DNA of 64,000 nt, taken from Trypanosoma brucei (lineage: Eukaryota). The stretch lies in contig CH464491.1 in the NCBI GenBank assembly GCA_000002445.1, positions 4,512,001 through 4,576,000 of the forward strand, written 5' to 3'. The notes under the pieces were generated by a model. The model was not told where the DNA came from. It ran no database searches and saw nothing but the letters and a program-made list of their open reading frames with translations. This document shows, one piece after another, positions 14,077-40,912 of this stretch. The translations under genes and the position numbers were made by a program. Each line of letters begins with the position of its first letter. The first letter of the stretch is position 1.

Positions 14077-15850
14077 TTAAAACAGAAAAACCACAAAGGC
14101 AGCAGCCATGAGAGCGAATTTATTATTTACAAGACAACAGGAATCCTTGCAAGTATTATTTTCCCATTTGCAGCCATCTTTCTCTCCTGTTTCTTGTTTT
14201 GCTTCTTTTCCTGCTTCCTTTTTTGCATTCTCGCCCAATGTGCATTTTCGGCTATTCCTTCCATCCTCTTTAAATATGCACCCCTTACCCTCAAGGTTTT
14301 TGCATTTATTTTGGTCATCTCCTGCTGCACTGCATTCTTTTTCGGCTTCTTGTTGTTTTAGTTTACTTGTGTCCCCCGTTTTTTTCGGTGACTTTGCTGT
14401 ACCGTCCGCGACTGCCGCTGACAGTGCTGTTAGGTGAAGATTCGATTCCAATGTTTCTTTGAATGTTTCTATTCTGGCTTCGGCAGCTACTGTAGCTTGT
14501 GCTTCTTTTTCGTATTTCTCAGCTGCTCCTGCTGCATTTTGGAGCTCTGCTAACCACGTCGGGAATGCTATTGTATTCGCGCCGCTTGTTAATGTTGCGC
14601 AGTCGCCTTTTCCTCCTGTGGCGTCGCCGTCGCAGTTACCTGCACCGGCGTTCGAGTCCGGGTGCCCTATATATCCGATTGTGCCATCGTTTCCTTTGGG
14701 TTCGTATATCAAGCTGTTTAGCTTGTTCGTCAGGTGTCTGAGTTCCTGCGCTGTCGCTGTTTGATGTGGTGCCGCTTCGCTTTTGCAGTTCTTTGCTATG
14801 ACGTCCCAGGCTGTGATAGCTGTGTTTTCGTTCCAGTCTGCTTGCGCGGTTGTTGCGGTCTTGTAGCATGCGGTGTTAGCGTTGTCGGATTTGCTTCCTG
14901 ACGCACACAGACAAGCTATAGTAATGCCGATCGAAAGTTTGGCTGAAGTCCCGCCCGTCGCTTTTGTTCCGCAGTGCGCCTGGCTGTCGCTTCCTGTGCC
15001 TAGTAGTTTCGGTTCTGGGTCTGTCCCTTCACCGCCTTACACTGCCTTTTTTAGGGCTGTAGCTATTTTCTGTTTTTTTGGCTGCAATGCTGCCCGCATC
15101 GAGTAGCTTCGCCTTTGTTGCTAGCAACTTGTTTAGAGTTGTGTTTAAGTTCCGGCTTAGCTGCGTTGGGTCTGTGGCTGCTCTTTTGAGTGCCGTTTGG
15201 CCTGCAGACGGCAAGCTCTTGAGGTAAGTGGATGCCGCTATACATTCTGCGCGACCGCTTCCACGGCACTTTTCCGTTATGTCGGTGTCCGGTGGTTGTT
15301 TCGACTGTTGTTCGGGTGGTGTTACGGCAAGTTTTTTTATTGCCAAGTAGTCACTTAGAATCAAAGATATGTGAGCAGCGGTTTCGGCTGCATTCTTTGC
15401 GTTTTTTTCATGCCTGTGGTAGGTCTTTAATGTTTTCTGAAGAGACAACTGCGGTGCACAATATGCCAAAGTTTTTCCTGTTTAGACCTTTTGCTGGGCC
15501 GGTTGCGGAGGCCGGTCTGAGCGACGACTGCAAGAGCGCTGCCATCGATATGGCTAAAGCAACCGCCGATTTGGCTATATCTCCTGGTTTCATTTTGTCG
15601 TTTCCCGTTGATGTCGTGGATATCCTATTGCTGCGGGTTGCGTGCTGTTGTTGTGCTTCTTGGTAGTGGCTCCCCTTTGATTCTTGAAGGTTGTGAAGTT
15701 TTTGTAATGCCACTTTCAGGTTCTTGTTTGTCGGCTTGCAGATTACCTTTTCTGGCCTTGTGCCCAGTTGCGGCCCCGCTGCCGTCTTTTGTTATCCTTA
15801 GCTTTCCTTCTCCAAGAGGTGTCAGTGGCAAACTCTGTGTATCCGAATCC
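14077..15850 (-). pseudogene. VSG: VSG (E): intact C-domain with GPI signal, badly fragmented N-domain
   Basis: ORF 14077..14712 (-) ends ...DGCKWENNTCKDSCCLVNNKFALMAAAFVVFLF*. N-domain pieces lie in at least 4 frames (15029..15469, 15408..15713, 15625..15831, 14636..14869). No clean signal peptide is present. Confidence 0.65.
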
Positions 15851-16199
15851 TATACTGCTAGTTCCTTTTTATGGAGTAAAGAAAAACTTATTCAGGCATA
15901 TACAATATGAGATTTTATTCACATTTTCTTAGGTGAGTTTTTTAAAATATAGTATTTATGAACATCCTGACACCATTTTTAATAAAAATGTGTTTTCGAC
16001 TTCACATAGCATAACAAATGATATTTAAGGTAAATAATTTTGTATCAACGGAGACAAGTGACTCACACATTAGGAAATGTAAATTATCACTATAAATAAT
16101 TTTGTTTTTCATATTTTCACCTTGAGTAAAGGTTTATGTTGGCATAAAAACCTACGGCCACCATGACCTAAATTTTTTTACAGAAAGATGTTACATACT

Positions 16200-16216
16200 T
16201 ATTCCAATCTATAGAA

Positions 16217-16256
<40 letters not shown>
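16200..16256. repeat. (CT)n(AT)n compound microsatellite
   Basis: ctctctctctctctctctctatatatatatatatat. Confidence 0.9.
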
Positions 16257-16257
<1 letters not shown>

Positions 16258-16699
16258 GCATCCACATACCTCCTCAGATTTGATTCTGTAATTATTACAA
16301 AAATATCACACATATCTTGTGCTTGAAAAATCATGTTGTATGGCTTCTAATCTGCTATATCTGTTGCTGAATACTTTCCTGTATACTCCTTGTTAGTAAC
16401 AACGTAAAGTCTTTGTTTGGCCAGTATACGAGGTGCTGTTCCTGATTCCTTCAAAAAATTGTATTCTGTTTTGTTTCTTTCGCTCACGATTTTTCAATTT
16501 GTAGTTTTCTGGAACTTCCTCTGTGCCCTGCTCTGGTGGTTAAGTAGAGTGCTCGTCGCAGATAGTAAAAGGGTCGATCCCCGTGGGCGGAAAGTGTTTA
16601 GCCTACGCTAAGGATGGATATGCCTCAACGTGGCGCTAGGGTTCAGGAACAGAAAAGAAATAAACTGGGAAGTCAAATGTTCCATCCAAACGGCGGCCG

Positions 16700-17108
16700 C
16701 AACACCGGATATGGAGCGACCGCTCCGTGGGGAGAGAACCATTACTTAGTGTTCCACCACGGTTCAGCACCCTGCTCAAGTGGGGGAACCAAAATCCCTG
16801 ACTTAACCTCCGTCCGGAGAGGAAGATGGATATGGTAAACATGGTTCAGACGCAAAGGAGGAGAGTATGGAATCGAACGGGCACCAAATGGAGAACGCTA
16901 CCCTAAACACGCGCACATGCAGTCGCCCACCGGTGGGTATCAATTCTATGAAAAACAGCGGGTTTTAGTGGGTAGGAACGCCGGTACAGCGTTGAGGCCC
17001 ACACTACCATGCCCTCGTGGTGTGGTGTGCGTAAATGCATTTCCTCCTACCCTCGTGTGGACTGACTGCATGGTCCCGACAGTTGCTCGAGAGAAAATCA
17101 AAAAAAAT
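16700..17108 (+). mobile_element. RIME/DIRE-like degenerate retroposon fragment (~0.4 kb)
   Basis: The 5' end (ggcggccgcaacaccggatatgg...ccgtggggagagaacc...cagcaccctgctcaagtgggggaaccaaaatccctgac) aligns loosely with the 5' end of the ingi at 35866 (gccggccacctcaacgtggtgccagg...cagtaccccgtatcatctggggaagccaag). It ends in an A-run (gagaaaatcaaaaaaaatg, ~17095-17108). It is GC-richer than its surroundings. Confidence 0.35.
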
Positions 17109-17384
17109 GTCTTATGTTTTTGCTACACTTGGAGAACTGCATACCCGTAAAGCTGACACTCAAGTATTACAACTCCTTTGTTTCTAAAAATTAACTTCTA
17201 CACAAGCATTACCACAAAACACTACATAATAAAAATTCCATTTCCAGCTACCAAACGCTTATGTTTTAAGTTCCCCCAAATTGTTACCGTAAATTGTTTT
17301 CTTTCCAAGTATTCATACCAACTAATATTTTTAACAATCAATTTAACTTTATCTTCTCAAGAAATAGTCTGTCCTGGTAAATGA

Positions 17385-18135
17385 ATAAACGAAGCCTTTA
17401 CAGTCACCCAACTATTGGGAATAGTAAAAAATATCTCCTCATAATTTAATCCAATCATTCCTCTCCTCAAAACAAATCTCTATCCAACAGCTTCTTCCAA
17501 CACAGCACTACATATTAGCAACGGTTTGTAAATACTCTGCTCTGACTACCATTCACCACTTCCCTTTAGTAACTCTCCAAATGCATATTCAAACCTTTTA
17601 AATGCCCAAACTCTTGCGATTATATTTCCACCACTAAGATAAGGTTTTCCACTTGGAGTTGATTTCAGTAAATGAGGTAACTCTTTATTCTCTTCTTTCC
17701 TGTCAGCCACATTAAAAAACCAAAAACATCTCTGCACATGCTCCTTATGTTCTGAGTTCATAAGCAAATCCAACTGAGAAACATAACACTCTGATGTTGT
17801 CATGAATATAATAGGGGAAATATGCTTCTCTTTTACTATATCTTCTTAACTAAACTTATCTTCCATCCCTGCAGTATTTTGAATAAAATACTTCACAGCA
17901 TTTCCATATTTTTCACGGTTGGATATTATAACATCACACTTATCAACAGTTATTACAATATCCTCATAACTTGCATTCTGTCTTTCCAAAAACTCCATAA
18001 CCCATCTAGGTCTTTTAACATGGCTATATAAACCTCCCATCGCAATTGTAATAATTTCAACATGGCTTAGTTTCGCAGTAAATATGAGCCTATACTATCC
18101 TTGAGTTGCATGAGTTTTAACTACAACAACGAACA
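17385..18135 (-). pseudogene. GT31-like subtelomeric pseudogene, copy 2 of 4
   Basis: ORFs 17546..17803 and 17846..18040 (-) are paralogous to copy 1 (GGLYSHVKRPRWVMEFLERQNAS..., ...KPYLSGGNIIARVWAFKRFEYAFGELLKG). Flanking nucleotide stretches are identical to copy 1 (ttaactaaacttatcttccatccctgcagtattttg). Confidence 0.45.
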
Positions 18136-18284
18136 CTCTTGGTTTCTTAGTATAATTCACTGACACTTTGTTTATGTTTTTCATCATCTTGATGAGATGC
18201 AGCGCTTAAACCACACTAATAGTAAAACAACAGTATAAGTGTATAAATATCATATTTCCTATTCTAATCTACTTTAAAACATTG

Positions 18285-18345
18285 AGTCTGTTGTGAGTTT
18301 GTGTATACGAATATTATAGCAATAGTGTTTGTGATGAAAACCGAA
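18285..18345 (+). repeat. 70-bp repeat element, degenerate (plus orientation)
   Basis: ctgttgtgagtttgtgtatacgaatattatagcaatagtg. Confidence 0.45.
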
Positions 18346-19189
18346 TTGGGGAAAAGTAGAAGCATTAAAAATAATGGTAAGGGTGATATAAGAGTAAGTG
18401 ATGGAGGAAAAGAAAAGAAATGTGCTAAGGATATTATTAAAGCAAAAGCATAAAGATAAAGAGGGATGGAGTGAGATTGTATACAAGCAGTTTCGAACAG
18501 TAACTTAATGACAGTGGTTCTTAATACAAGGAGATGAAGGAAGGAATATTGAAAGGAAGACAAAGTTTGGTTTACAAGCCAAATTTTGTCACTAGGTGAT
18601 ACGCAACAACACAGCGCAGAAAAAGGAAAGTGATACATTAGAATGAATCACTGATTATTCCTCAAATTTCACGTTGAAATGAATATAAGCCACCGCATAT
18701 ATGATTTTATTCACTTAAAATGTTAATATTCTGGAGAAATAATGTTTAGCTTCACTGAGGTAAGTGTCTGACGATGAAGAAACGTTGATTTTCACTTGAA
18801 GATAACCAGTAATAGAGAAAATGTATGATACATAGGAACCCAAAAGGTCGGTTAGAATTTTGCAACCAGCTCGACCTCACAAAACAGCCTGCGGCAAGGA
18901 GCCAATCAATAATAGGTCGAATTTCACGAAGTGAGGGCAGAAGCAGCATGCGTAAACCTAGGTAATGGACCTAAAAAACAAAGAGTGCAACTGCAAAAAC
19001 TGAGCTGGTGCCAGAGAAGACAACAAACATCTAACAACTAACATAAGAAGAGGTGGCGCACTAGTCATGTCCACTCTGAATGTGTCAACCACTGCATACT
19101 TAGGCATAAGTCACCTTTTCTAAGCCAAACACAGCTCCTTGTTTACTTTCCAACTCCAGAAATAACACAGCAAGGAGCACTGGAAAAAT

Positions 19190-20573
19190 ATGACACTATC
19201 ATGGATACTACTAGCGACTGTAGTGGCGATGCTACCAATCTGGACTATAACAGTGGAGACGGCTGCAGGACAAGGTCTAAAAGACACCTCTTGTAGCCTC
19301 TCTGTCAACTACCCAAACAAAGACTTGGACACTATAAGCAAAAAAGCGACACTCAAACTGAAAACAGCTGTACTTGACACCGACGCCATGATAAAGCTGA
19401 AACTTCAAACGGAAATTTATCTAGCCAAGCTGCCCAACAAACAAGACACGCGCCCATGGGCCGCTCTTGAAGCGGCCCTTGAAAGGGAAATAGGAGGCGT
19501 CTTAACAGCACTTCCAGGTACAGCAAAAGCAGCAATCAAAGCAACACAGCGCGCAGCTCACCTGCAAGAACGCTTAGCCGAATTTCTGTCAATCTTCGCA
19601 AACGCAGCCAAATCCGGCGTGCCGCAACATTGCTGCCTCTCAACAGGTTCAAACCATCAAACAGCAGTTGAAGGTATCACAGGCCTAAAAGGCTGCGTCC
19701 ACAAACCTGGAAATAGCAGCGCCGTTCCGGAAGCGGTGACGACAATCACGGCAGCAACGTACAAAGACATACCGACTCAAACAGCTGACGGGAGAGATGC
19801 GATAGCTGCGGCGTCCAACCTAAACTGCAGCATAGCACTGGGGACAGAAGATGGATCTCTGGGAGCCGGCATACCTAAAAACGGAAACAACAGCAAGAGC
19901 CACGAGCCTTTCACTGCAGCTTATCTCAAGGTAGCCGCCAATGCAATAACAGCAGTTAACCCCAACAACAGCAGCAAGCTACGCTAAGCCAAGTGAATTC
20001 ATGGTAATTTAGGTAGCAGAACTCAAAAAGCAGTGAGTTTACTGCTTCAATCCAAAGCCGAACACGACGACCACACAGAAAAGTTGGTAAAAGACAAATA
20101 AAAAAGAGGAACGAAATTCGAAACAGATTTCTGGGGCAAGGTGCTAAACGAGCAGGTAACAAAGCAAACGGCAGACGGACAAAGCAACCGCATGCTAGGA
20201 CAGATGAACGACATCACTGAGCTGCAACTTACTCTAACGTATTATGAGAGCCTTAACGGCGCGGAACATAAAGATAATTAAGGAGCTGCAGGAAGAAAGC
20301 AAAGCAAATAAAGAAAGTTCAGCAACCACAAAGATTAGTGAAACAGATGAAACTTGCGCGACCAAAGGAGTAGATAATGTGAAAACCCCTGCAAGTTGGT
20401 TGACGAAGAAGGTGGAAAAAAGAAGTGCAAATTGGATAAAGAAGCGGCAAAACAAGCAGCCCAGGCAAGAGAGAAAGATAGTAAAACCGGACCCACAAAC
20501 ACCACAGGAAGCAATTCTTTTGTCATCAACAAGGCCCCTCTTTTGCTTGTATTTTTGATTCTAGCATAAAACT
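19190..20573 (+). pseudogene. VSG: VSG (F): 265-aa N-domain ORF ending in a premature stop; C-domain split over 3 frames
   Basis: ORF 19190..19987 has a signal peptide (MTLSWILLATVVAMLPIWT). C-domain and GPI signal (…GSNSFVINKAPLLLVFLILA*) are recoverable only by frame-hopping between 20000 and 20573. Confidence 0.7.
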
Positions 20574-20647
20574 TTTAAAAATTATTGGTAAAGGATTTTT
20601 TGCTAAATTTTAATAAATATATTAAATTAGTTTTTTTTGAGGGAATT

Positions 20648-20663
20648 AGATATATTTTAACAC
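20648..20663 (+). promoter_or_regulatory. VSG 3'UTR 16-mer (AGATATATTTTAACAC, 15/16)
   Basis: The sequence agatatattttaacac lies ~80 nt after the VSG F stop. Confidence 0.65.
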
Positions 20664-20867
20664 TTTTTGATGAAAATGTGAAAATTAGTGAGAATTTTCG
20701 AAACTTGAAAATTATGAAAATTTTAGTAAAATGTGTATGACAGTGTCCCAGGTGTGTGAAGGTAAAGAAATATAAGGAATGAAGAATGAATACTATTCTC
20801 ATTGGATTATTTTGTTTATTTTTTGTGTTTTATGGATGTTTGTTAGGCTTTAATAACGATAACTACA

Positions 20868-20915
20868 AGATAGTATTGTGAGTGTGTATATACTAATATT
20901 ATGGGAACTATGGTG
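20868..20915 (+). repeat. 70-bp repeat element (plus orientation)
   Basis: gatagtattgtgagtgtgtatatactaatattatgggaac. Confidence 0.5.
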
Positions 20916-22043
20916 CTGAAGACAGATGGACGGGCTAAGTGCAAGCATCTATATCAGTTACAGAGCGCAATGTAAGTAAGTAATTGAGTAACAAAGAATG
21001 GAGAAGAGAAAAGGATAAAAATGTTAGAAAAGAAAACAAAAAGTGTTAGAAGGATTTGATGCACTGTTTAGTAAAAGTCTATAGGACGATATCATCATAC
21101 GGGGAAATGGTTAAGAACAATGAGACAAGAAGTCTACTAACCGATATAAATAGAAATACTTCGGAATTCACAGCAGTAATAGGTACAAAAGCCGCTGTCG
21201 AAAGAATAGGTAAAAGAAGTAACTAAATGATAAGAAACCGCGGATGGACGCGCAAAGAAGAATTTTTTTAGTACAGAACGTTTCAAATGACAATCAACCT
21301 CTCTCTTACTGTCTCAATAAAAAACTGTTGAACCCATTTAGAAAGCGAGCAATTCATAAACGTATACACACTAACACGGTATTGATGGAACTTGTCAAAC
21401 ACATTCACAGTGAAAAATGTATTTGGGACCGCAAATGAGCAATGAGAGACGAAAGAGACAGACATTTACATGATAACAACAAAGATAAGTTGAAGCTGTG
21501 AGTATGGCAGAAACGCTGGCTTAATATTGTTATTGAATAAGTACACACACAACAGAAGTTAACCTCTAATAGAAGCACAAAGATACAATAATAAATATAA
21601 AATTTTTTGATGGAGATTAGACTTCTATAAATTATATCTTTAAGTAGATAATTCTTTTACTTGACTGAGTGATTTTTAAGCAACAATAGCTGACTGGAAA
21701 ACGGCACTCATACAAAACTTTTGTACGCCCCCTCAGACATGAAGAAATATTTATAGCCTTGTATTTTTTAGCAGTTTGTTACTTTCCACTTTCACTGGTA
21801 TTATAACGCGACACATCAAATGATTCATTTAAAAATAACACTCATTATTATTTTTGGCAGGAAAACCTAAGTAAAAAAGCAAACATTGGATAGAGAATTA
21901 AGGGATCTGTGTTTGATTTTCAAACTTATTACTAAGTCCGCTGCTTGGCCCAAAATGCATACCCAAACCGGCATACAGACTGCAAGGACATACTTTTATT
22001 TAAGAACCACATTTTAACGGTAAGGACCAAAGAAGCTCTTTCA

Positions 22044-23560
22044 TGGATGTAAGGAAAAGCAGGATCTTAACGCTCTTAGTAACGCTCTTAGTAACGCTGG
22101 CGCTTTTAAATGACGCCCTCAAAGCCTTAGAAAATGTAGCGGAAGACAGCAACCAGCCAGAACGACAGGCTTTGTGCTCTATAATAGAGCTCGGTGGCGA
22201 AAGATCAAAACTTCTAGACTAGGCACCAGGAGGAACTTCAGACTTGGATGAGTTGCTATCAATCAACATGAAGCTCGCGGAAGACACAAGGCTGCAACAC
22301 TTCAGGGACGCAACCGACCCGACTAAGCCACGAGACACAACCAAACAAGCGCTACCCCCGAATACGAATTGGAATGAACGCTGGCCGGACTGGCAAAAAG
22401 CCGCTAACCCTCTGTTGGAAAAAGGCGAAATCACGGAAAAACTTAAACACTTTACTAGACAAGTTAAATGATAAACAAAAACATGCCGTCCGACTCCACA
22501 TATTCAAACTAGCGGAAGAAGCGTCCAGGGAGGCCAAGCAAGCAGAACAAGAACATCCAGCAGGCGACTTCCTAACAGAAGACGACCTACACAAAGAGCT
22601 AAACAAAGCAATTTACGGTGAAGAAACAGAACCTGCTGACGATTTCAGCAATTGTAAAACGTTTGGCGACAGCCCTGCCAGTGACAGACAAGCGAACTGC
22701 GGCAGTGCCAGCGTAGCAGGCAAAACCAACACGGCATTCGCAGCATTCGTCTGCGTATGCGCCAAAGACAACACCAACGGTGGAAACGAGGGAAAAGCCT
22801 GTGCAGGTTCTGTAACTCTGAGCAGCACCTGGAATCCGGGCACCAACAATAACCCATCACCCGCAACGTTAGCAGAATTAAGAAAGCTATGCAATATAAA
22901 GGCTGAAACACAGCTAACAGTAGCAGATCTTCAAAGAAGGATCGCAGATGTAACTGGATTACTCCGCTACACAACCCAAGCAACGCACCTCGGCACTTTC
23001 CTGACTACAGCCTGCAGCGGCGCCGCAGCCAGAGGAGTGTGTGTCACATACAAGGGCATCCACGGCCACGCTGCGGACCCTAAGAAGGCAATAAACTGGC
23101 TAGCTGAACTAGATGCCACGGCGAAAAAAATACACAAACACGAACAGGCGGTCTAAGCTAGGAATAGGCTAGCTCAGCTACTAGCAGTAAAAAAGCAGCT
23201 TGCTACGGACGTAGACTACCTAACAAGAACAATAGAAACACCGCAGCGACGCCCCGGACTGCAACAGCAAGCGGAAGAACAAAAAAACAAAAACCAAGCA
23301 AGAGCACAATCAATCTGCGACGAACACAAAAAAAGTAAAACTAAATGCGAAAATACAGGTAAATGCAAATGAAAAGGAGAGGATGAGACCAAAGGGGAAT
23401 GCAAATCTAAAGAGGGGAAGGGCAGAAAAGCTAAGGAACAGAGGGAGCTGTGGGAACAGTCGCTAGAGTAAAATGCAAAGTAAAAGTGGAGAAAGATTGC
23501 AAATATCTGGATTTTCAACAGTAAGGAACAGAGTGAAAATATTCCAGTTTTCTCGTCAAT
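22044..23560 (+). pseudogene. VSG: VSG (G), paralogue of VSG H; in-frame stops and frameshifts
   Basis: The ATG at ~22044 encodes MDVRKSRILTLLVTLLVTLALLN...ERSKLLD* (stop TAG at ~22218, where the paralogue has CAG). ORFs 22244..22471 and 22374..23156 continue the N-domain (…FAAFVCVCAKDNT…). The C-domain runs 23160-23560. Confidence 0.7.
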
Positions 23561-23655
23561 AAAAAATTGGCTGTTATGGCTGCTACTTTTATGAGTTTAG
23601 TCGAATTCTAGGATCCAAAGGATATTTGCTTAGTATAATGAAAAATAAGAAATTT

Positions 23656-24780
23656 CCCTGGTGACGCTGGCCACATCATCGTAATGTCAGTGTCTAGTAT
23701 TTCGTCCAGAAGGAATTCAATAGCCCGCATTATACACGATCCAAAAGGGTTGAGGCTGGAAACAGGTTTTCAGCCACCAGAGAAGAAGCAAGAAGCAACA
23801 TCGGCACTCTGTGGTAAATGAGGTTTTACGAATTCTTCCCTGCACGTGCAAACGTGCCTCGATTGGGATAAATAGGCTTCCACTACTACTTAGCAGAGAT
23901 GTTGAGTGTAATCCTGCTCCCCAGATACATGGAACCCAATATAACACTGTGGAGGTACCTCAGAAAAACGACTTGCCTTAGAGAAGAAGCTCCACGAGGA
24001 TATGGTAGTCTTCTGTTTATTGCGGGAGACACACTTGGCAGCAGAAGAGTACTGCATATTAAAAGCAGCGGATACCAACATATGTGGATGTCACGTTCTC
24101 TACATGGTGGTATGGTATCAATTCTAGTCAAATATGGGATGGGAGTGGAACTGGGTCCAAAGCTGGAGGGTCTGCCGGAAAGAGTCTCGGTAACACTGAT
24201 GTTTTTAGCTGATTTAATGTTAACTATAAAATCATTTTACTTCCAACGGAAGAAAAATGTCACTACCTACGCTTGAGTGTCTTGAGAGATCGACTTTACC
24301 AATATTAATAAGATCTGATACAAAAACTCATCATGATTTACGGGATCCGTTATGCTCAAATGATACTGTAAGAGAAGTTTTGTGGACTAGTGTCTACGAA
24401 AAGATATCAAAATTGCAAATGATGGCACTACGAGGAAAAATATGCCTCTCACAGAAACCAGATCATCTCATGATGTTATAACGTACAGAGACTGCGAAGT
24501 CACAAGATGGAAGGCAAGCCTCATCCCAGAGAGTGACAACTAATGGAAAACGTTTGAGATATGTATTGGCATTGGTGTAGAAGTGATCGCCATTACAAAG
24601 CCAATAAGGGTGTTGTATGCTTGGAGTATAGCAAACTAGTTGGAGTTTAGAAAAGTGTGTGGTGTAATAATGGTGAAAAAATTAAGGAAGTCTGGAAAGA
24701 ACGTGGATGCTATGAATGAGGCAGTGACAAAAGTAATTCGCACAGCAGCAAAGGAAACAATACAAAAATGTAAGGGAGTA
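23656..24780 (+). mobile_element. DIRE (degenerate ingi-related element), 5' part, internally deleted; truncated by the assembly gap
   Basis: The 5' end (ccctggtgacgctggccacatcatcgtaatgtcag) aligns to the ingi 5' end at 35866. A decayed 2A motif DVECNPAP sits at 23898-23921, where ingi has DVEENPGP. An APE block VFCLLRETHLAAEEY matches ingi AFCLLSETRMTPEEA. An RT-start block VKKLRKSGKNVDAMNEAV matches ingi IKLLPSGSAAGPDCLYNEAL. Confidence 0.6.
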
Positions 24781-24880
24781 NNNNNNNNNNNNNNNNNNNN
24801 NNNNNNNNNNNNNNNNNNNNNNNNNNNNNNNNNNNNNNNNNNNNNNNNNNNNNNNNNNNNNNNNNNNNNNNNNNNNNNNN
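24781..24880. other. Assembly gap (100 N)
   Basis: A run of n, of the conventional unknown-size gap length. Confidence 1.
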
Positions 24881-26036
24881 TATCTAGCCAAGCTGCCCAA
24901 CAAACAAGACACGCGCCCATGGGCCGCTCTTGAAGCGGCCCTTGAAAGGGAAATAGGAGGCGTCTTAACAGCACTTCCAGGTACAGCAAAAGCAGCAATC
25001 AAAGCAACACAGCGCGCAGCTCACCTGCAAGAACGCTTAGCCGAATTTCTGTCAATCTTCGCAAACGCAGCCAAATCCGGCGTGCCGCAACATTGCTGCC
25101 TCTCAACAGGTTCAAACCATCAAACAGCAGTTGAAGGTATCACAGGCCTAAAAGGCTGCGTCCACAAACCTGGAAATAGCAGCGCCGTTCCGGAAGCGGT
25201 GACGACAATCACGGCAGCAACGTACAAAGACATACCGACTCAAACAGCTGACGGGAGAGATGCGATAGCTGCGGCGTCCAACCTAAACTGCAGCATAGCA
25301 CTGGGGACAGAAGATGGATCTCTGGGAGCCGGCATACCTAAAAACGGAAACAACAGCAAGAGCCACGAGCCTTTCACTGCAGCTTATCTCAAGGTAGCCG
25401 CCAATGCAATAACAGCAGTTAACCCCAACAACAGCATCAAGCTACGCTAAGCCAAGTGAATTCATGGTAATTTAGGTAGCAGAACTCAAAAAGCAGTGAG
25501 TTTACTGCTTCAATCCAAAGCCGAACACGACGACCACACAGAAAAGTTGGTAAAAGACAAATAAAAAAGAGGAACGAAATTCGAAACAGATTTCTGGGGC
25601 AAGGTGCTAAACGAGCAGGTAACAAAGCAAACGGCAGACGGACAAAGCAACCGCATGCTAGGACAGATGAACGACATCACTGAGCTGCAACTTACTCTAA
25701 CGTATTATGAGAGCCTTAACGGCGCGGAACATAAAGATAATTAAGGAGCTGCAGGAAGAAAGCAAAGCAAATAAAGAAAGTTCAGCAACCACAAAGATTA
25801 GTGAAACAGATGAAACTTGCGCGACCAAAGGAGTAGATAATGTGAAAACCCCTGCAAGTTGGTTGACGAAGAAGGTGGAAAAAAGAAGTGCAAATTGGAT
25901 AAAGAAGCGGCAAAACAAGCAGCCCAGGCAAGAGAGAAAGATAGTAAAACCGGACCCACAAACACCACAGGAAGCAATTCTTTTGTCATCAACAAGGCCC
26001 CTCTTTTGCTTGTATTTTTGATTCTAGCATAAAACT
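24881..26036 (+). pseudogene. VSG: VSG (F'), near-identical duplicate of VSG F from its codon ~77 onward; 5' end lies in the gap
   Basis: Positions 24881.. match 19417.. almost base for base. One difference is SSKLR>SIKLR at 25436. ORF 25082..25450 equals the tail of ORF 19190..19987, and ORF 25707..26021 equals ORF 20244..20558. Confidence 0.75.
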
Positions 26037-26110
26037 TTTAAAAATTATTGGTAAAGGATTTTTTGCTAAATTTTAATAAATATATTAAATTAGTTTTTTT
26101 TGAGGGAATT

Positions 26111-26126
26111 AGATATATTTTAACAC
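26111..26126 (+). promoter_or_regulatory. VSG 3'UTR 16-mer (duplicate of 20648-20663)
   Basis: agatatattttaacac. Confidence 0.65.
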
Positions 26127-26330
26127 TTTTTGATGAAAATGTGAAAATTAGTGAGAATTTTCGAAACTTGAAAATTATGAAAATTTTAGTAAAATGTGTA
26201 TGACAGTGTCCCAGGTGTGTGAAGGTAAAGAAATATAAGGAATGAAGAATGAATACTATTCTCATTGGATTATTTTGTTTATTTTTTGTGTTTTATGGAT
26301 GTTTGTTAGGCTTTAATAACGATAACTACA

Positions 26331-26378
26331 AGATAGTATTGTGAGTGTGTATATACTAATATTATGGGAACTATGGTG
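26331..26378 (+). repeat. 70-bp repeat element (duplicate of 20868-20915)
   Basis: gatagtattgtgagtgtgtatatactaatattatgggaac. Confidence 0.5.
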
Positions 26379-27504
26379 CTGAAGACAGATGGACGGGCTA
26401 AGTGCAAGCATCTATATCAGTTACAGAGCGCAATGTAAGTAAGTAATTGAGTAACAAAGAATGGAGAAGAGAAAAGGATAAAAAATGTTAGAAAAGAAAA
26501 CAAAAAGTGTTAGAAGGATTTGATGCACTGTTTAGTAAAAGTCTATAGGACGATATCATCATACGGGGAAATGGTTAAGAACAATGAGACAAGAAGTCTA
26601 CTAATCGATATAAATAGAAATACTTCGGAATTCACAGCAGTAATAGGTACAAAAGCCGCTGTCGAAAGAACAGGTAAAAGAAGTAACTAAATGATAAGAA
26701 ACCGCGGATGGACGCGCAAAGAAGAATTTTTTTAGTACAGAAAGATTCAAATGACAATCCGCCTCACTCTCACTAAATCAATAAAAAACTGTTGAACCCA
26801 TTTAAAGAGCGAGCAATTCACAGACGTATACACACTAATACGGTATTGATAGAGCGTATCAAACACTTCACAGCGAAAAGTGCATTTGGGACTGAAAATG
26901 AACAACGTGAGACGAAAGAGACAGATATTTACATGATAAGGACAAAAATAAGTTGAAGCTGTGAGTATGGTAGAAACGCTGGCTTAATATTGTTATTTAA
27001 TAAGTACACACACAACAGAAGTTAACCTCTAATATAAGCACAAAATACAATAATAAATATAAAAATTTTTGACAGAGATTAGACTTCTATAAATTATATC
27101 TTTAAGTAGATAATTCTTTTACTTGACTGAGTGATTTTTAAGCAACAATAACTGACTGGCAAACAGCACTCATACAAAACTTTTGTACGTCCACTCAGAC
27201 ATGAAAAAATATTTCTAGCTTTATTTTATTTAGAAGTTTGTTACTTTCCACTTTCACTGGTATTATAACGCGACACATCAAATGATTCATTTAAAAATAA
27301 CACTCGTTATTATTTTTGGCAGGAAAATCTAAGTAAAAAAGCAAAAATGGGACAGAGAATTAAGGGATCTGTGTTTTATTTACAAACTTATTACTAAGTC
27401 CGGTGCTTGGCCCAAAATGTATACCCAAACCGGCATACAGACTGCAAGGACATACTTTTATTTGAGAACCACATTTTAACGGTAAGGACCAAAGAAGCTC
27501 TTTC

Positions 27505-29095
27505 ATGGCGGCAGCCAAAGGAAGGATCTTAACTCTCTTAGCGACGCTGCCGCTTTTAAATGGAGCCCTTACAGCCTTAGCAGCTGTAGCGGAAGACAGC
27601 AACCAGCCAGAACGAAGGGCTTTGTGCGCTATAATAGAGCTCGGTGGCGAAAGATCAAAGCTTCTAGACCAGGCACCAGGAGGAACTTCAGACTTGGATG
27701 AGTTGCTATCGTTAAACATGACGCTCGCGGAAGACACATGGCTGCAACACTTCAGGGACGCAACAGACCCGACTAAGCCACGAGACACAACCAAACAAGC
27801 GCTACCCCCGAATACGAATTGGGATAAGCGCTGGGCAGACTGGAAGAAAGCCGCCGACCCTCTGTTGGACAAAGGAAAGATCACGGAAAAACTAAAACAC
27901 TTTAAGCTAGACAAGTTAAACGATGAACAAAAACATGCCGTCCGGCAGAACGTAGCTAAACTGGCGGAAGAACCCTACACGGAGGCGAAGCAAGAGGAGG
28001 AGGACCATCCGACAGCCGATATCCTAACAGAAGAAGACCTGCACAAAGAACTAAACACAGCAATTTACGGAACCCAAACGGAGCCTGCTGACACTTTCGA
28101 TAATTATAAAACGTTCGGCGACACCGCGGGCGCAACCAGGGAAGCAAACTGCGGAACTAACACGCAAGCGAGCAAGGCAGAAACGGCGTTCGCCGCATTC
28201 GTCTGCGTATGTGCCAAAGACAACACACACGCCGGCGACGAAGCAAAAGCCTGTGCAGCTTCTGTAGATCTGACCAACAACTGGGATCCGGGCACCAACA
28301 ATAACCCATTGCCAGCCACGTTAGCACAATTAAGGAAGCTGTGCAATATGAAGGCTGAAACGACGCTAACAGCATCAGAGCTGCAAAGAAGGATCGCGGA
28401 AATCACAGGATTACTCCGTCACACAACACAAGCAACGCACCTCGGAACTTTCCTAACTACAGACTGCAGCGGAGCCGCAGCCAACGGGATGTGTGTCACA
28501 TACAAGGGCATACACAACAACGCAGCAGACCCCAAGAAAGCAATAACCTGGATAGCTCAACTAGATGCCACGGCGAAAAAAATACACAAACACGAACAGG
28601 CGGTCCAAACTAGGAAGAGGCTAGCTCAGCAACTAGCAGTAAAAAAGAAGCTTGCTACGGACGTAGACCACCTAACAAGAACAATAGAAACGCCGCAGCG
28701 ACGGTCCGAACTGCAACAGCAAGCGGAAGAACAAAAAACCAAAAACCAAGCAATAGCACAATCAACCTGCGACCCACAAAGAAAAGTAAAAATAAATGCG
28801 AAAATACAGGTAAATGCAAATGGAAAGGTGAGGATGAGAGCAAACGAAAGTGCGAAGTTAAAGATGGTGGAGAGCAGAACAGCTAAGGAACAGATAGAGA
28901 TGCAGGAACAACTGTAAACTGTAGAAAGTATAAGGGCTAGGAGAGTTGCAAAAACGCGCCTGGAGAAAAAAGCCATGTAAAATGCCGTCTGTGGCTGGAT
29001 TGATTTCATTGAAAGACAAGGCAAAGTAAAACCGGCATGCATGGATTCCAGTTTTCTCTCCAATCAGAAATTGGCTCTGATGGCCGCTGCTTTTG
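27505..29095 (+). pseudogene. VSG: VSG (H): intact signal peptide and ~400-aa N-domain; C-domain and GPI signal scrambled over 3 frames
   Basis: ORF 27505..28917 (470 aa) begins MAAAKGRILTLLATLPLLNGALTALAAVAEDSNQ and carries ...FAAFVCVCAKDNTHAGDEAKACAAS.... After ~28790 the real C-domain (CENTGKCKWKGEDESKRKCEVKDGGEQNS* and later ...DSSFLSNQKLALMAAAFV...) lies in other frames. Confidence 0.7.
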
Positions 29096-29166
29096 TAGAT
29101 TCGTATTATTTTTGCATTCTAAAATTTTAATTATTATTGCTCAAGTTTATGAAACTTGCTGAAATT

Positions 29167-29182
29167 TGATATATTTTAATAT
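29167..29182 (+). promoter_or_regulatory. VSG 3'UTR 16-mer variant (TGATATATTTTAATAT, 14/16)
   Basis: tgatatattttaatat, downstream of the VSG H GPI-signal remnant. Confidence 0.5.
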
Positions 29183-29269
29183 TTTTGTATATCCTTTAAA
29201 ATATTTGAGAATCTAAAATGGTTGTATGACTTTAGCCCATAGGTGGATATAACAATGGTTATAGAGCAT

Positions 29270-29700
<431 letters not shown>

Positions 29701-31425: not shown

Positions 31426-32943
31426 ATGACCGGCAGAAAAGTCTCTATCACCAGCAAAAGTCTGTTGGCCGCCGTTGCAGCACTACTAACGCTAGTGTAT
31501 GCAACAAAGCCAGCATCAACAGCGGCCATAACCGATGCTGACACCGGCCCAGCACAGATAACAGACGTCTGCAAGGAAGAGTTTTATTTGTCTGAGCTGC
31601 GAAAAGAACTCGCGGCAGGAATCACCAGGCGGCGAACACAGAGACAGGGACTACTGAAGATACAGAAAAAGTACAGGCTGGCAGCGGACTTAGCAAGCAG
31701 CACAGAACAGCGTTGCCTTTACTCCGCTTTAGCTGCCAAGCTTGAGGAAAAAGCGGAGTCAGTACAACAGCAGGCCGACAAAGCCGACGACACAGCCACC
31801 ACAGCAATGGAGCTGATCGACGAACATGTAGGCAAACTCAAGTACGCACAGAAACTACTCAAAACAAAGCCAACCGTAGACGGCAGCGGCTACAGCCGAG
31901 CAAGCAGCGGGGGCAATATCCACCTAGAGTTAACACGGGAGACAATCGCCAGCGGCGGCTGCGCAGCAATTGACAGCTGGGCCAAATTCAGCAACACTCA
32001 CACGGCCATCAACACTGCGAAGTTAACTGAGATTAAAATAACACCGGACACCGAGCTCACCACAAAAATATTCAAAGACAAAATAACCATTGGCGGGTTC
32101 AGTACATGCACAGGATCCGCAGTAGCAAAAACACCGACGTTCTCGAGTGTCCTAAACACCTGCACCGTATCAAACAGTGAAACAGTAACCTATGCACGTA
32201 ACGCCCCAGACTACATATACGGAGGGACAGCACAAGCGGTCTACAAAGATCATGACCCTGACCAAGGCTGCAAAGACGCGGCAGCGGCGGCCGAGCCCGG
32301 CGCAACGGATGACATCAAACTCCGCTATGCAGTATGCGAAGCGCTCAAAATTATACAAACAGACGGGGGCAAGGTGCCACCCTTAAATGGCAAAGCACTG
32401 AAAGGCGACAAACTAGTAACAAATATACTAAGAAACTGCCTACCTGCATACCAAGCAGTAAGTAAGCCGTTGGACTCAGTCGAAGCGAAGAATTTAAACG
32501 ATTTTATAGAATCAGCATATGGTGCAGACGACGGAAAATTCAAAGAGATTTTCGATACCCCACTCGACTCACGACAGATAACCGTCAAACTGAATGACAA
32601 AAGCGAAGACAAAGCACTAACTGCACTATCTACAGCTAGCGAACGCAACGCAGCGACTAGCCATAGCGCTGGCCAGCGGAACAAAAAAGAAATTGAAACA
32701 TCAAAGAAACAACCAGCCGGTGCACCAGTTGCTTCCAAAGAATCAGAAGAAAAATGCAAGGACAAAACACAAAAAGAGTGCAAAGAGGAAGATGGGTGCG
32801 TATTCAAGGGGGGAAAGTGCGAAGCTAAAGTAACCACAACAACAGGGACAGATGGGAAAACAAACACCACAGGAAGCAATTCATTTGTCATTAAGAAGGT
32901 GCATCTTTTGCTTGCATTCTCCCTCGCATTATTAAATTTCTAA
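31426..32943 (+). CDS. VSG: VSG (J), apparently intact, 505 aa
   Basis: A single ORF with a signal peptide (MTGRKVSITSKSLLAAVAALLTLVYA) and an N-domain. Its C-domain reads ...CKDKTQKECKEEDGCVFKGGKCEAKVTTTTGTDGKTNTTGSNSFVIKKVHLLLAFSLALLNF*. Confidence 0.8.
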   Translation: MTGRKVSITSKSLLAAVAALLTLVYATKPASTAAITDADTGPAQITDVCKEEFYLSELRKELAAGITRRRTQRQGLLKIQKKYRLAADLASSTEQRCLYSALAAKLEEKAESVQQQADKADDTATTAMELIDEHVGKLKYAQKLLKTKPTVDGSGYSRASSGGNIHLELTRETIASGGCAAIDSWAKFSNTHTAINTAKLTEIKITPDTELTTKIFKDKITIGGFSTCTGSAVAKTPTFSSVLNTCTVSNSETVTYARNAPDYIYGGTAQAVYKDHDPDQGCKDAAAAAEPGATDDIKLRYAVCEALKIIQTDGGKVPPLNGKALKGDKLVTNILRNCLPAYQAVSKPLDSVEAKNLNDFIESAYGADDGKFKEIFDTPLDSRQITVKLNDKSEDKALTALSTASERNAATSHSAGQRNKKEIETSKKQPAGAPVASKESEEKCKDKTQKECKEEDGCVFKGGKCEAKVTTTTGTDGKTNTTGSNSFVIKKVHLLLAFSLALLNF

Positions 32944-35874: not shown

Positions 35875-37023
35875 ATGCCGGCCACCTCAACGTGGTGCCA
35901 GGGTCCAGTACCCCGTATCATCTGGGGAAGCCAAGAGCCAGCAGCGTTCCCTTCATGGGGAACACTGCTGTGCTCCGGCTACGGCATCATACAGCACAGG
36001 GATCAGCAGCGTCTTGCTGGGACACCGTCTTTCATTTGTCGGTCCCTGGGCACGTGCCAGTGTGCCATCAGCAGTATCATCCGCACTAAGATGCTGCTGT
36101 CCGGTGATGTGGAAGAGAATCCCGGCCCGTCTTTGCGCGGGATGCAGTGGAACTGCGCCGGGCTATCTCAAGGAAAGAGATTAGCACTCCACAAAACCCT
36201 TGTTGATGAGCGGATCGCCTTTTGTCTGTTGAGCGAGACAAGGATGACGCCTGAAGAGGCGGCTTGCTTTAGCGTTGCTGGCTACCAACATCACGAAATA
36301 GCTCGTAACTGCAAAGGAGGTGGTGTATCAATACAAGTGAGGGAGGACCTGCCAGTCGAGACCGGTATGCCCGTTATTGGTCGCATTGAACAAGTGCATG
36401 CAACAATTCACCTTGCACGTGGAACGGCGCTGACTGTCACGTCGGCATACATCCCACCAAAACACACCTTCACGGCAACTGACCTAGATACGCTTCTGAC
36501 GACTGACGGTGCCCAGCTCATCGGTGCAGACGCTAACGCACACGCGTTGGCATGGGATCGCGCGAGCCCACCAAATACCAAGGGTGAAACCCTCACACAG
36601 TGGTGCATTGACAACCAGTTTCTGGTCTGCAACACTGATGAGTGCACCAGGTACGCGCGCCACCACGGGGAGTCCACCCCTGACGTGACACTGTCAAGGA
36701 ATTGCACAGTGTACACGTGGACATCGCTGTATTCTCCCGATAGCGATCACCATCACATATTTTTCGACGTTATCGTTGGAGACGACACAGATGCACTGAG
36801 TTGCCCGCGGCTTCGAAAGCCCATGTACGGATGGCTAAAAGCTAACTGGAGGAATTTCCGTCTCAAGGTTGACGAGCTCTGCAGGAAAATTGGTAGAAAG
36901 AAGAACGTCAACACCCTGAAACAGAAATTGAGCTCCGCCATCCGCATTGGACACCTGAGCTCGCGAAACTCGATGAAGAGATCGCTGGATGCGGACCCTC
37001 CCACCGAAGGAAAAAATTGGTAG
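35875..37023 (+). pseudogene. ingi ORF segment: 2A peptide (DVEENPGP at 36106-36129) plus APE endonuclease domain
   Basis: ...KMLLSGDVEENPGPSLRGMQWNCAGL...IAFCLLSETRMTPEE...SAYIPPKH... Confidence 0.75.
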
Positions 37024-37464
37024 CCACGCGTAAGCAAATCCTGGACCGTACCACAAAGAAGAGATGGAGCACGCTATGCTCCAGACTTGCGGTGTCGGAC
37101 CGCTGCAGTTGGCACATTGTCAAGAAGGTATATGCGCCACGACCACTAACCACACCGGCTGTACTTGTTGATAACGCGGCCATCACGGACTACCGTCAAG
37201 CTGAGAGGTTCAGTAAACTGTACTCGTCCCGCGCAAGAAGGCACCCCAACTCACACCCACCGGCACCAATAAAGACGATAGCGAGTGAGTTCAGTCCCAT
37301 CACGATGGCTGAACTACGGAGATCGATCAAACTGCTACCGAGTGGATCCGCAGCCGGACCTGATTGCTTATACAACGAGGCACTGAACATCTCGGTAAAA
37401 CAGCGCTGAATGTTGTTCTGAGGCTATTCAATGAGAGCCTACGAACGGGAGTCGTGCCGCCTGC

Positions 37465-38829
37465 ATGGAAGACTGGTGTTATCATCCCCATCCTGAAGGC
37501 CGGAAAAACGCGGAGGACCTCGATTCTTACAGGCCTGTGACACTCAGGAGCTGTCTCTGCAAAGTCATGGAGCGCATAATTGCGGCGAGGCTTAGAGACA
37601 CTGTTGAGTCCCAGCTGACGCCACAGCAATCAGGCTTTCGCCCCGGATGCTCAACGCTCGAACAACTCCTGCACATCCGCGCTGCCCTCTGCCGTCCCAC
37701 GCACCAATCTCGTACGGGTACTGTATTTGTCGACTACGAGAAGGCATTCGATACAGCAGACCACGACAAAATTGCGAGGGAAATGCACAGAATGAAGGTA
37801 TCACCCCACATTGTGAAGTGGTGCGTATCATTTCTGAGTAACCGAACTGGCAGAGTGAGATTCAAGGAGAAGCTTTCCAGAAGCAGAACATTTGAGCGAG
37901 GAGTGCCACAAGGAACTGTCCTTGGCCCAATGATATTCATTATTGTCATGAACTCGTTGAGCCAACGCCTTGCAGAAGTGCCGTTACTGCAGCACGGATT
38001 CTTTGCAGACGACCTAACGCCACTTGCGAGGCACACAGAGAGGGATGTCATCAACCACACGCTACAATGCGGCCTCAACGTGGTGTTACAGTGGTCAAAA
38101 GAGTACTTCATGTCTGTCAACGTAGCGAAAACAGAGTGCACACTCTTCGGGTGTATAGAGCGCCACCCCCTTACATTACAACTGTACGGCGAAAGAATAG
38201 GAGCCGACAGGACACCGAAGCTTCTAGGAGTAACATTCCAGTGTCTGCAGGGGATGGCAACACATGCGGCCGAAACGAGACGCAAGATGGACTTCAGACT
38301 ACTGCAGATAGCAGCCATCTCAGCTTCTACATGGGGGCCAAGACGACAAGTACTGAGAGCTTTTTATCTAGCACTCGTACAGGCACACACCATGTATGGC
38401 ATTGAGGTATGGTACTGGGACGCTTCGGAACGAAGTCGCAACCTCCTTGCAGCAGCACAACACAAAGCCAGTCGCATCATAGCTGGCATACCGCATGGGA
38501 CGCGCAAAGAGGACTCTCTGCTGGAAGCAAACCTCCTGCCACTCAAGACGGCCACTCTTGTGCGCAGAATGAAATTCATGCTGATGTGTGAGTCACGAGG
38601 CGGATGTTTGCGGCGTAGTGCTGAGGAAGTATACCACAGCAAACACCCAGTCAGAGCCCTGCATTCCCGTATCATGCGGTCCTACCCCCACCTCCGCATT
38701 GAGCCACGCGAGCACCCACTAGAGACATCGACGCTCCGCCACAGCTGCCGACCGCTATTTCACACGCAGATAAAGCCTGTGTGCGCTGATGACCCTGACG
38801 ATGTAAAAACAAAGGGTTCCAAAAAGTGA
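37465..38829 (+). pseudogene. ingi ORF segment: reverse transcriptase (FADD box)
   Basis: ...YRPVTLRSCLCKVMERIIAARL...GVPQGTVLGPMIFIIVMNSL...GFFADDLT... Confidence 0.75.
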
Positions 38830-39088
38830 ATTGCACGGCATTTTGCACGGAGGGGGATAGGAGCCACCGCGGCGAGAGCACTACGAATTGTAGACTGATG
38901 GATCCGTCTCCCTCGGTGAGAAGCCCGGAGCAGCTGCACTGCTCTATAGAAACAACACGCTGATTTGTGCACCCAAAACTGGAGCAGGGGAACTCTCATG
39001 CAGTTAAAGAGCGGAATGCGTAGCATTAGAGATAGGACTGCAACGGCTGCTGAAATGGCTTCCGGCATACAGAAGCACACCGAGCAGG

Positions 39089-40912
39089 TTGTCCATCTTC
39101 TCTGACTCGCTGTCAATGTTAACAGCACTGCAGACAGGCTTTCTAATAGTGTCGGACCCAATTCTAAGACGACTATGGAGGCTTCTGCTTCAAGTTCAGA
39201 GAAGGAAGATGCGTATCCGACTGCAATTTGTATTTGGCCATTGTGGCGTGAAACGGAATGAGGTTTGTGATGACATGGCCAAAAAGGCCGCTGATTTACC
39301 ACAGTTGCGAGACACATGGATAACGGACATCATTGCTTACGCGAAGCGAGTGCTTAGGTCGGAAGAAGTCCATGAGAACACTCATAGGTTTGGTATTACA
39401 GGCAACCACTTTCCAACAAAAAATAAGGAAGAACTGACGAGGGAAGAAGAAACGGCACTGGCACGCTTTCGGGTTGGGTCTTCAAGACACTATGGATGGA
39501 TGTTGCGAAAGATCAACCCGAGTGTGCCTCCACAGTGCCGATGGTGTAACCCGCAACATGCAGCGATAGGGCCAACAATACAAACAACCACACCTGTTGC
39601 GACACGCACTCTTCAGAGAACCTCCGAATCCACCAAATGTACGGAATGTGATGCCACATACCAATGCCGCTCGAGTGCTGTAACGCACATGGTAAACAAA
39701 CATGGCTTTGTGCGAGCTGATGCCCTCCGGAGGATCAAATACGGCGATGCAAGACCTGCAGTGGACATCCCCCCGGAGCCCCTTCCAGTGGTGGCGATCG
39801 TTCCTCTACCATCGAGCACACGAGTCCCGATGAGACCGCAGGTGCTTCATTGTACCCTCTGTGCCTACAAATTCGCAGTGCCAGGCCGACTATTACACCA
39901 CCTTAGAACAATACATGGCATAGGCAGCGGTAGTTGCCGCGTGAAAAGGGGGCGAGAAAACGAAGACTCAGTGCAAGGAGATGGTAGAGCCCCAGCAGCG
40001 CCAGCCTCTCAGGATACACGGAAGCTGCCGTTTCAATGTGACCTGTGCGAGGCGAGCTTCGGTACACGCTCTTCCCTGTCACTACACAAGAAATTCAAAC
40101 ATAAGAGCATAGTGACGGAGGACGGTACCGTGGTGGTGGTGCAAATCCCTCGTAAGCGTGCCCGTGAGGGAAACGTTGACGCCCCGGGGAAAGGCGAGGT
40201 GCAGTGTGGTGTGTGCCAAAAAGTGCTCAGTTGCAGGGACTCCCTCATCCGACACTGTAAGGCTTTCCACAAAGGTGAGGGAGTCGAGCTTAAATGCAGC
40301 AATAACACAAAATTGTGTGCCACTGATTCCCCGCATACAAACACATCCATGTTGGTTTGCCCGACATGCGGAAGGCAGTGTGCTAGCAAAACTGGCCTCA
40401 CCCTACATCAAAAGAAGATGCACGGTATGAGAGTAGAGCGCGCTGTTACCAGCCAACGCGGCAACTGCGAAGAAACGTCGCTGCACTTGATGAGCTGTCC
40501 CGGTTTGAAGGAGTTACGTGTCAGGTTTGCGGTAGAAGGTGTGTGTGTGCAGGATGTATGTTTCTTTAAAAGGCTGGCGCAATTTCTCATTGCGGTTGAA
40601 CGGAGCCGGCCGCAGGTGAAGTCTTCCCCTAATGTAACAGTCATACAACCCACTCTCCCTTCTGCAACTTCCCCCCTTATTGCCGACTGTGGAGCTAGCA
40701 GGAAAAGCACCGGACGCAGGAATAGTCCAGACACCCTCAGAGACAGAGGGGGTATGCAATCAACAAGCAAAAAAACAGAAAGAGGGGGAGAGAATAATAA
40801 ACGAATAACAAAAATCAAAACAAAAGAATTGCTAATTGACATCTTTGGGAGAGTCCAGGGTGGGGGGCTTCTCGCCCCATCTGCTGTATTCCGTTCAAAT
40901 GCGGAGCTATAA
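39089..40912 (+). pseudogene. ingi ORF segment: RNaseH-like/C-terminal domain with 5 C2H2 zinc fingers
   Basis: CTECDATYQCRSSAVTHMVNKHG, HCTLCAYKFAVPGRLLHHLRTIHG, QCDLCEASFGTRSSLSLHKKFKHK, QCGVCQKVLSCRDSLIRHCKAFHK, CPTCGRQCASKTGLTLHQKKMHG. Confidence 0.7.

Follow-up and report, generated by a model that had tools for sequence, protein, structure and literature searches.

How could two cassettes that carry genes for variant surface glycoproteins (VSG) come to be almost identical in their upstream part and clearly diverged in the part downstream? The question is raised by a stretch of 64,000 nucleotides (nt) of Trypanosoma brucei DNA (contig CH464491.1, positions 4,512,001 to 4,576,000; below, the window), in which VSG F is followed by VSG G to the left of an assembly gap, and a truncated second copy of F (F') is followed by VSG H to the right of it. 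The left cassette is called copy A and lies on contig A; the right cassette is called copy B and lies on contig B. The pattern probably goes back to a recent homologous-recombination event, whether gene conversion or duplicative transposition, that was superimposed on older VSG paralogues among which conversion had been patchy. We infer recombination as the cause, and likewise the relative ages of the layers, from the evidence given below.

The only run of N in the window is the gap itself (24781-24880, 100 N). Comparison of the sequence left of the gap with that right of it by BLASTN gives one long match, 19418-23458 against 24881-28910 (92.83% over 4045 columns), in which both cassette copies have the same orientation. 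In self-BLAST of the 64-kb window this is the sole repeat pair exceeding 80% identity. Global alignment of copy A with copy B resolves the match into steps. The visible core, 19418-21278 against 24881-26742, is 99.8% identical and differs by three substitutions and one homopolymer indel: G>T at 19974/25437 (AGC>ATC, Ser>Ile), an A-run near 26480 with one extra A in copy B, C>T at 21141/26605 and T>C at 21207/26671. The near-identical block reported in the initial annotation is confirmed by this alignment. Both differences named there are real, although the substitution lies at 25437 rather than 25436, and those at 21141 and 21207 have to be added to them.

Downstream of the core, identity falls to 92.2% in the intergenic flank upstream of G (21279-22042, plus strand; its counterpart upstream of H is 26743-27504, plus strand). 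It is 87-90% in the 5' part of the G/H genes (22043-22400), 80-83% in their centre (22401-23100) and 88-90% in their 3' part (23101-23458); over the whole genes G and H are 84% identical, gaps counted. Past about 23460/28910 similarity is gone, except for a 50-nt patch (23541-23590 against 29045-29094) at 84%. The drop at 21279 is abrupt, with dense differences appearing within a few bases: 4 of the 1862 core columns differ, versus 60 of the next 764 (Fisher's exact test, p = 5e-74). Along the alignment identity passes from 99.8% to about 92% and then to 80-90%, so that it is stepped and not uniform, as had been proposed; the gradual decay described over about 21260-21900 is replaced by a sharp step at 21279.

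The gene carried by the core is dead. VSG F (19190-20569, plus strand) is an A-type pseudogene (PF00913, E 5.7e-22 on the open reading frame (ORF) 19190-19987) with 459 codons in one frame, nine in-frame stops, no frameshift and a tail resembling a glycosylphosphatidylinositol (GPI) signal. F' becomes visible at codon 77 and extends to 26032. Every stop of F from that codon on is common to F', and the visible F' is identical to F apart from the one Ser>Ile change. Since F is a dead gene whose stops are common to F', this identity reflects recency and not purifying selection. The block had been described as the 3' half of F/F'; it includes all of F except the first 76 codons.

The part of copy B hidden by the gap could be followed in another assembly. 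Exact look-up of H retrieved contig CZPT02001161.1 of T. equiperdum OVI (7,577 nt; below, L001). Positions 3027-7577 of L001 match the window at 24881-29431 with no mismatch, including every site at which copy B differs from copy A (e.g., the Ile codon in the ORF), and the visible copy B core (24881-26742, plus strand; F' from codon 77, the 16-mer, a 70-bp repeat and intergenic sequence) is accordingly 100% identical to it. Left of the gap edge, L001 1655-3026 matches 18046-19417 with no mismatch and L001 1023-1644 matches 17329-17950 with one; between them L001 has N10 (1645-1654) where the window has 95 nt (17951-18045). On this alignment copy B runs on for at least 2.09 kb left of the gap edge with the sequence of copy A. 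Since L001 continues there as the sequence upstream of F, the near-identical core measures about 3.95 kb (17329-21278, plus strand, in copy A) at about 99.9% identity. It comprises part of a dispersed repeat R, a weak 70-bp-like repeat, F, the 16-mer, a 70-bp repeat and 357 nt of intergenic sequence. The tract had been thought to be confined to F, the 16-mer and the 70-bp element; instead it begins at 17329, within R, and ends at 21278, 357 nt past the 70-bp repeat.

Beyond the left edge the two loci part. L001 1-1022 is unrelated to the window at 16300-17328, except for the R portion at 916-1022, which corresponds to the left ~100 nt of an R copy and is only ~60-65% identical to the R of copy A. 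The left edge of the core thus lies ~100 nt inside R, with unrelated flanks beyond it. On its left the core is joined to flank X in the window and to flank Y in OVI (X-core, Y-core), and on its right to the G or the H side (core-G, core-H), which makes two different junctions at either end.

A second OVI contig, L002, shows only about three real differences from the window in 10.4 kb (about 0.03%; >99.9% identical) and ends inside the R copy at 53 kb. Exact look-ups of H and of the 477-aa VSG at 57823 both found their targets in T. equiperdum OVI. The OVI data thus come from a separate assembly, of a strain almost identical to the source of the window. The OVI cluster is known to lie close to TREU927 (PMC5566637), and the assembly was made with Velvet (k=33) and SSAKE from 2x150 reads (PMC5278650).

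R is a dispersed, non-coding repeat of ~1 kb, located upstream of F at 17223-18318 (plus strand) by self-BLAST, sensitive BLAST and a five-way alignment. Other copies lie at 1241-2252 (plus), 53022-53910 (plus) and 61616-60619 (minus), with 64-79% identity, and R sits upstream of some VSG cassettes. It gave no Pfam match in three minus frames and no protein homologue. A degenerate 70-bp-type repeat upstream of F (18266-18336, plus strand; repeat family D7, 61% to the reference copy) and a second member of D7 between F and G (20851-20921, plus strand) both fall within the tract; the canonical 70-bp core motif occurs elsewhere in the window. The conserved 16-mer (TGATATATTTTAACAC) of the VSG 3' untranslated region (UTR) follows F at 20648-20663 (plus strand, one mismatch). 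As had been noted, both elements recur in copy B, the 16-mer at 26111-26126 (one mismatch) and the 70-bp-type repeat at 26314-26384. A further 16-mer with two mismatches lies at 29167, and the window holds nine matches versus 0.11 expected by chance. No 16-mer was found after G in the window search; there the 3' UTR of G is interrupted by a degenerate ingi-related element (DIRE). Downstream of H a 70-bp repeat block (29318-29700) includes (TAA)76. This run is uninterrupted at 29409-29638, and L001 ends within it, at 29431.

The downstream genes tell of an older history. VSG G (22043-23611, plus strand; PF13206, E 5.7e-40 on ORF 22374-23156) is a B-type pseudogene. Its ATG is at 22043, one base before the start given earlier, and the in-frame stops reported for it are confirmed by codon alignment (codons 56 and 368 in the frame of H), together with several frameshifting indels. 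Within its signal-peptide coding region a perfect 12-nt tandem duplication (22068-22098, TAACGCTCTTAG x2.6) explains a 12-nt indel relative to H. VSG H (27505-29130, plus strand; PF13206, E 2.5e-61; ORF 27505-28917, 470 aa) is also of B type. The complete N-domain attributed to H is borne out by Pfam; its C-terminal domain is frameshifted near 28780 and continues as a degenerate GPI-like tail to 29130. Protein matches put the G ORF at 100% identity with T. brucei ARB50874.1, and H at 100% with T. equiperdum OVI SCU69153.1 and at 98% with T. brucei ARB50661.1. G and H bear different lesions, and they decayed independently after the older identity layers had formed.

The synonymous divergence (dS) of G from H is uneven, spanning a range of about 5-7 fold across the gene: 0.09 at codons 31-100, 0.39-0.62 at codons 101-330 and 0.16 at codons 331-400. 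At the N-domain centre, G lies at least as near to the other family members P0002 (a T. brucei VSG) and P0003 as it does to H, all four being roughly equidistant. The uneven dS and this equidistance mean that the old layer is itself a mosaic. G and H are distinct paralogues, as had been stated, but they are not simply 10-15% diverged from one old duplication, given a dS mosaic of 0.09-0.62. A finer patch is seen at the 5' end of H, whose residues 1-30 are 100% identical to P0002 and only 67% to P0001, its 98% relative, from which H does not differ in the other 440 residues. Because residues 1-30 match P0002 and not P0001, they point to a short 5' conversion patch differing between strains. The same codons (27505-27600) form a local dip in identity (76%) between copies A and B. 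Such features indicate repeated patchy conversion in this B-type VSG subfamily.

The similarity of the two copies probably comprises at least three layers of different age, in a cassette with the order R, 70-bp repeat, A-type F, 16-mer, 70-bp repeat, intergenic sequence and B-type VSG (G or H). The deepest layer would be the centre of the N-domain, 80-83% identical (dS about 0.4-0.6), which belongs to a reticulate B-type VSG subfamily. The second would take in the intergenic stretch together with both ends (5' and 3') of G/H, 88-92% identical. The most recent event would have produced the ~3.95-kb, ~99.9% identical tract at 17329-21278 and in its partner. It could have taken the form of gene conversion between pre-existing paralogues, or of a one-ended duplicative copy primed from homology on the G/H side and resolved in R. 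The right end of the tract lies within pre-existing ~92% homology, the left end lies in a dispersed repeat, and no terminal repeats or target duplications suggestive of transposition were found at the core. Taken together, these three features are the signature of homologous recombination.

Several observations weigh against this explanation. L001 spans both core edges unbroken despite being a k=33 short-read assembly, which is unexpected if OVI has two 99.9% identical 3.95-kb copies; OVI may hold one core copy only (Y-core-H), or a more diverged copy A. The left part of copy B is absent from the window and is deduced from another assembly of a very close strain. Four proteins were looked up exactly in the contig collection in order to reach contigs bearing copy A or crossing the gap, namely those of the F and G ORFs, of the VSG at 31426 (505 aa) and of the ORF at 10864 (355 aa). 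None had a match, and copy A was not met with in a second assembly. Immediately beyond the left edge of the tract, identity between the R copies amounts to only ~60-65%, a weak homology for classical two-ended conversion. Finally, contig B starts within a repeat directly after the 100-N gap, a classic trouble spot of assembly; the assembly caveat of the initial annotation was justified. Nothing obvious was seen in the way of a restriction-site or clone-end cause for the start of contig B at 24881.

The low identity of R also bears on a possible new duplicative transposition, corresponding to the recent partial re-duplication considered earlier as a second option. In this scheme a single F existed before the event. 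Break-induced replication or synthesis-dependent strand annealing, engaged through the ~92% homology upstream of G/H, would have copied leftwards over the 70-bp repeat, F and most of R and been resolved in R, placing a new F upstream of the other paralogue. The unrelated left flanks, with only ~100 nt of diverged R beyond the edge, fit this scheme better than two-ended conversion, and at the right edge homology is good. A homologue search of the protein database with the F ORF yielded no matches at E<=1e-20, and hence no trace of an older family of F is seen. Against it, the R element at the left edge of both copies points to some prior common architecture. Moreover, the tract overwrote the prior state, and sequence cannot separate such an event from conversion of a diverged F paralogue. 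Taken by itself, this scheme is possible, if doubtful.

A further explanation concerns the arrangement of the copies. Both could be real and yet not tandem, contig B being derived from another array or from the subtelomere of the homologue and joined on behind contig A, across a default 100-N spacer, by scaffolding guided by a reference or by homology. The gap (24781-24880) is indeed a conventional placeholder, and it would conceal 3,026 nt or more of copy B, given true adjacency of the contigs. The left edge of the visible second copy does coincide with the gap and follow a DIRE fragment, as had been described. The 5,463-nt period holds in window coordinates only and includes the 100-N placeholder; it is an artefact of the 100-N convention and not a property of the genome. 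The tandem unit of about 5.46 kb therefore has no sequence support in its spacing, and L001 adds at least 3,026 nt which do not overlap the end of contig A. Because these nucleotides lie left of 24881 in L001 and are missing from the window, the spacing is at least 8.4 kb. The adjacency of copies A and B is inferred and putative. Of the history proposed earlier, the recent recombination that made the upstream part near-identical is upheld by the stepped identity, and the old two-VSG tandem unit of 5.46 kb falls with the placeholder spacing.

The sequences on either side of the gap bear on the same question. Contig A ends in the 5' part of a DIRE (23640-24780, plus strand; the start is approximate), which runs into the gap. 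The fragment itself gave no match in a Pfam search. Its identity, proposed earlier, was confirmed by tblastx, in which 23844-24702 aligns with 36052-36912 at 27-45% amino-acid identity on the same strand, in multiple frames and with stops, the DIRE being colinear with the endonuclease region of an ingi-like element at 35875-40912. Comparison of L001 1-3026, i.e., the 3 kb before the visible copy B, with the end of contig A in this endonuclease region revealed no overlap, as mis-scaffolding would have it. The Y flank (L001 ~90-730) weakly resembles a B-type VSG on the minus strand, at that gene's 5' end (E 1.6e-4, short of the Pfam cut-off), so the orientation would change within the gap; strand switches are frequent in the window anyway. 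L001 3-82 (80 nt), at the very start of the contig, is 91% identical to the tail of the ingi 3' ORF, on the plus strand and in the orientation of the DIRE entering the gap, which fits one retroelement bridging the gap. Speculatively, the gap would hide about 6.6 kb if a single ingi-length element bridges it. Misplacement of contig B has to be taken seriously, if on balance it is somewhat unlikely.

Concealed by the gap are codons 1-76 of F', the 70-bp repeat upstream of it, most of an R element and a left flank unlike that of copy A, so that VSG counts and tandem unit sizes would come out wrong if read off this scaffold. The practical value of the result lies mainly in annotation and assembly.

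A more specific proposal, which we consider distinctly unlikely, is that the tract results from a very recent, possibly strain-specific recombination between silent copies, using R as upstream homology and ignoring the canonical boundaries. If this were true, the unbroken OVI contig would mean that OVI is without a second near-identical copy. The event would then postdate the split of two almost identical strains, which would provide a natural 'before/after' pair for the study of archive evolution.

The weakest alternative is an assembly artefact, in which the genome has one core copy and the core-G or core-H join, beside the gap, is chimeric: it draws on the start of contig B in a repeat right after the only gap in 64 kb, on the Velvet contig of OVI running unbroken through the core as a single-copy sequence would, and on the lack of any independent copy A sequence in the exact-protein look-ups and the F homologue search, yet it is improbable, since two of the four core differences (21141 and 21207) stand just before the dense divergence at 21279, as between two loci, both G and H exist as genes in a further T. 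brucei data set (ARB50874.1, 100%; ARB50661.1, 98%), the 760 nt upstream of G and H are about 92% alike, so that an upstream continuation of its own is required for each, X-core-G comes from one assembly and Y-core-H from another made by a different method, and the flanks are not the same on either side (8-20% diverged on the right, unrelated on the left).

The ORFs neighbouring F, G and H are also VSG according to Pfam. VSG domains, 16-mers, 70-bp repeats and the matches to SCU69153.1 and ARB50874.1 together identify the window, as judged from its sequence, as a silent VSG array of the T. brucei group. Upstream of F lie a minus-strand VSG (14077-15713) and then a divergent strand-switch region (15713-19190) with R. 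A candidate plus-strand VSG 'E' upstream of F was rejected, stops being present throughout all plus frames of 15900-18300. The coding strand of the VSGs and 16-mers is minus at 1-15.7 kb, plus at 19-33 kb (followed by the ingi element), minus at 42-59 kb and plus from ~62 kb.

The ingi-type element at 35875-40912 (plus strand) is a near full-length non-LTR (long terminal repeat) retrotransposon split into three ORFs. One ORF carries an endonuclease (PF14529), one a reverse transcriptase (PF00078, E 5.5e-42) and one RNase H together with C2H2 zinc fingers. The 505-aa ORF at 31426-32943 (plus strand) has the appearance of a complete VSG, in which a signal peptide is combined with a C-terminal domain rich in cysteine and the GPI-signal tail GSNSFVIKKVHLLLAFSLALLNF; it has no Pfam match even at E<=1. 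Four minus-strand ORFs of 315-354 aa (42386-43435, 45569-46582, 48099-49163 and 3945-4892) gave no Pfam match at E<=0.001. They are probably divergent VSG fragments, and the 505-aa ORF a divergent VSG, missed by the Pfam models.

Among known systems, repeat-induced gap or collapse resembles the present case in that a contig ends inside a near-identical repeat abutting an N placeholder. It differs in that here diagnostic differences exist, the flanks are different on both sides, and a second assembly reproduces copy B with a left flank of its own. Segmental and tandem duplications of T. brucei (PMC2854126, Table 1, Figure 2) are alike in having units of several kb, both identical and strongly diverged genes, and an adjacent ingi-type element. 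Those duplications involve non-VSG genes in chromosome cores, whereas here VSG are concerned, and the unit length and tandem arrangement are, owing to the gap, putative. That assemblies mis-count such repeats is a caution already given by Jackson et al. 2010 (PMC2854126).

Conversion during expression-site switching is alike in the copying of VSG by homologous recombination, with 70-bp repeats and the 3' UTR in or near the segment. Canonical switching tracts start in the 70-bp repeats, end in the 3' end or UTR of the VSG and target a telomeric expression site. Unlike these, both partners here are silent array copies, and the cargo is a pseudogene with nine stops. The left edge lies in R, upstream of the 70-bp repeat, and the right edge 357 nt past the next 70-bp repeat.

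The closest counterpart is the birth-and-death evolution of the silent VSG archive, with which the work of Marcello and Barry in 2007 is said to deal. Its evolution proceeds through duplications, point mutations and short or segmental gene conversions (Hall et al. 2013, PMC3708902; Jackson et al. 2010, PMC2854126), and in the latter study 63% of the VSGs of TREU927 had a nearer relative in another T. b. brucei VSG than in any read from T. b. gambiense. The locus described here is alike in its subtelomeric-type VSG array, its blocks of mixed age, its independent pseudogenisation and its patchwork subfamily (G, H, P0002 and P0003). Nothing fundamental differs: the tract is unusually clean, long (~3.95 kb) and very recent, and it takes in a whole dead VSG plus both flanking 70-bp repeats. 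The feature is of an ordinary, well-understood kind in trypanosome VSG arrays and leaves current understanding unchanged. It offers a clean worked example of the remodelling of the silent VSG archive, in which a long recent tract carrying a dead gene lies over older patchy conversions.

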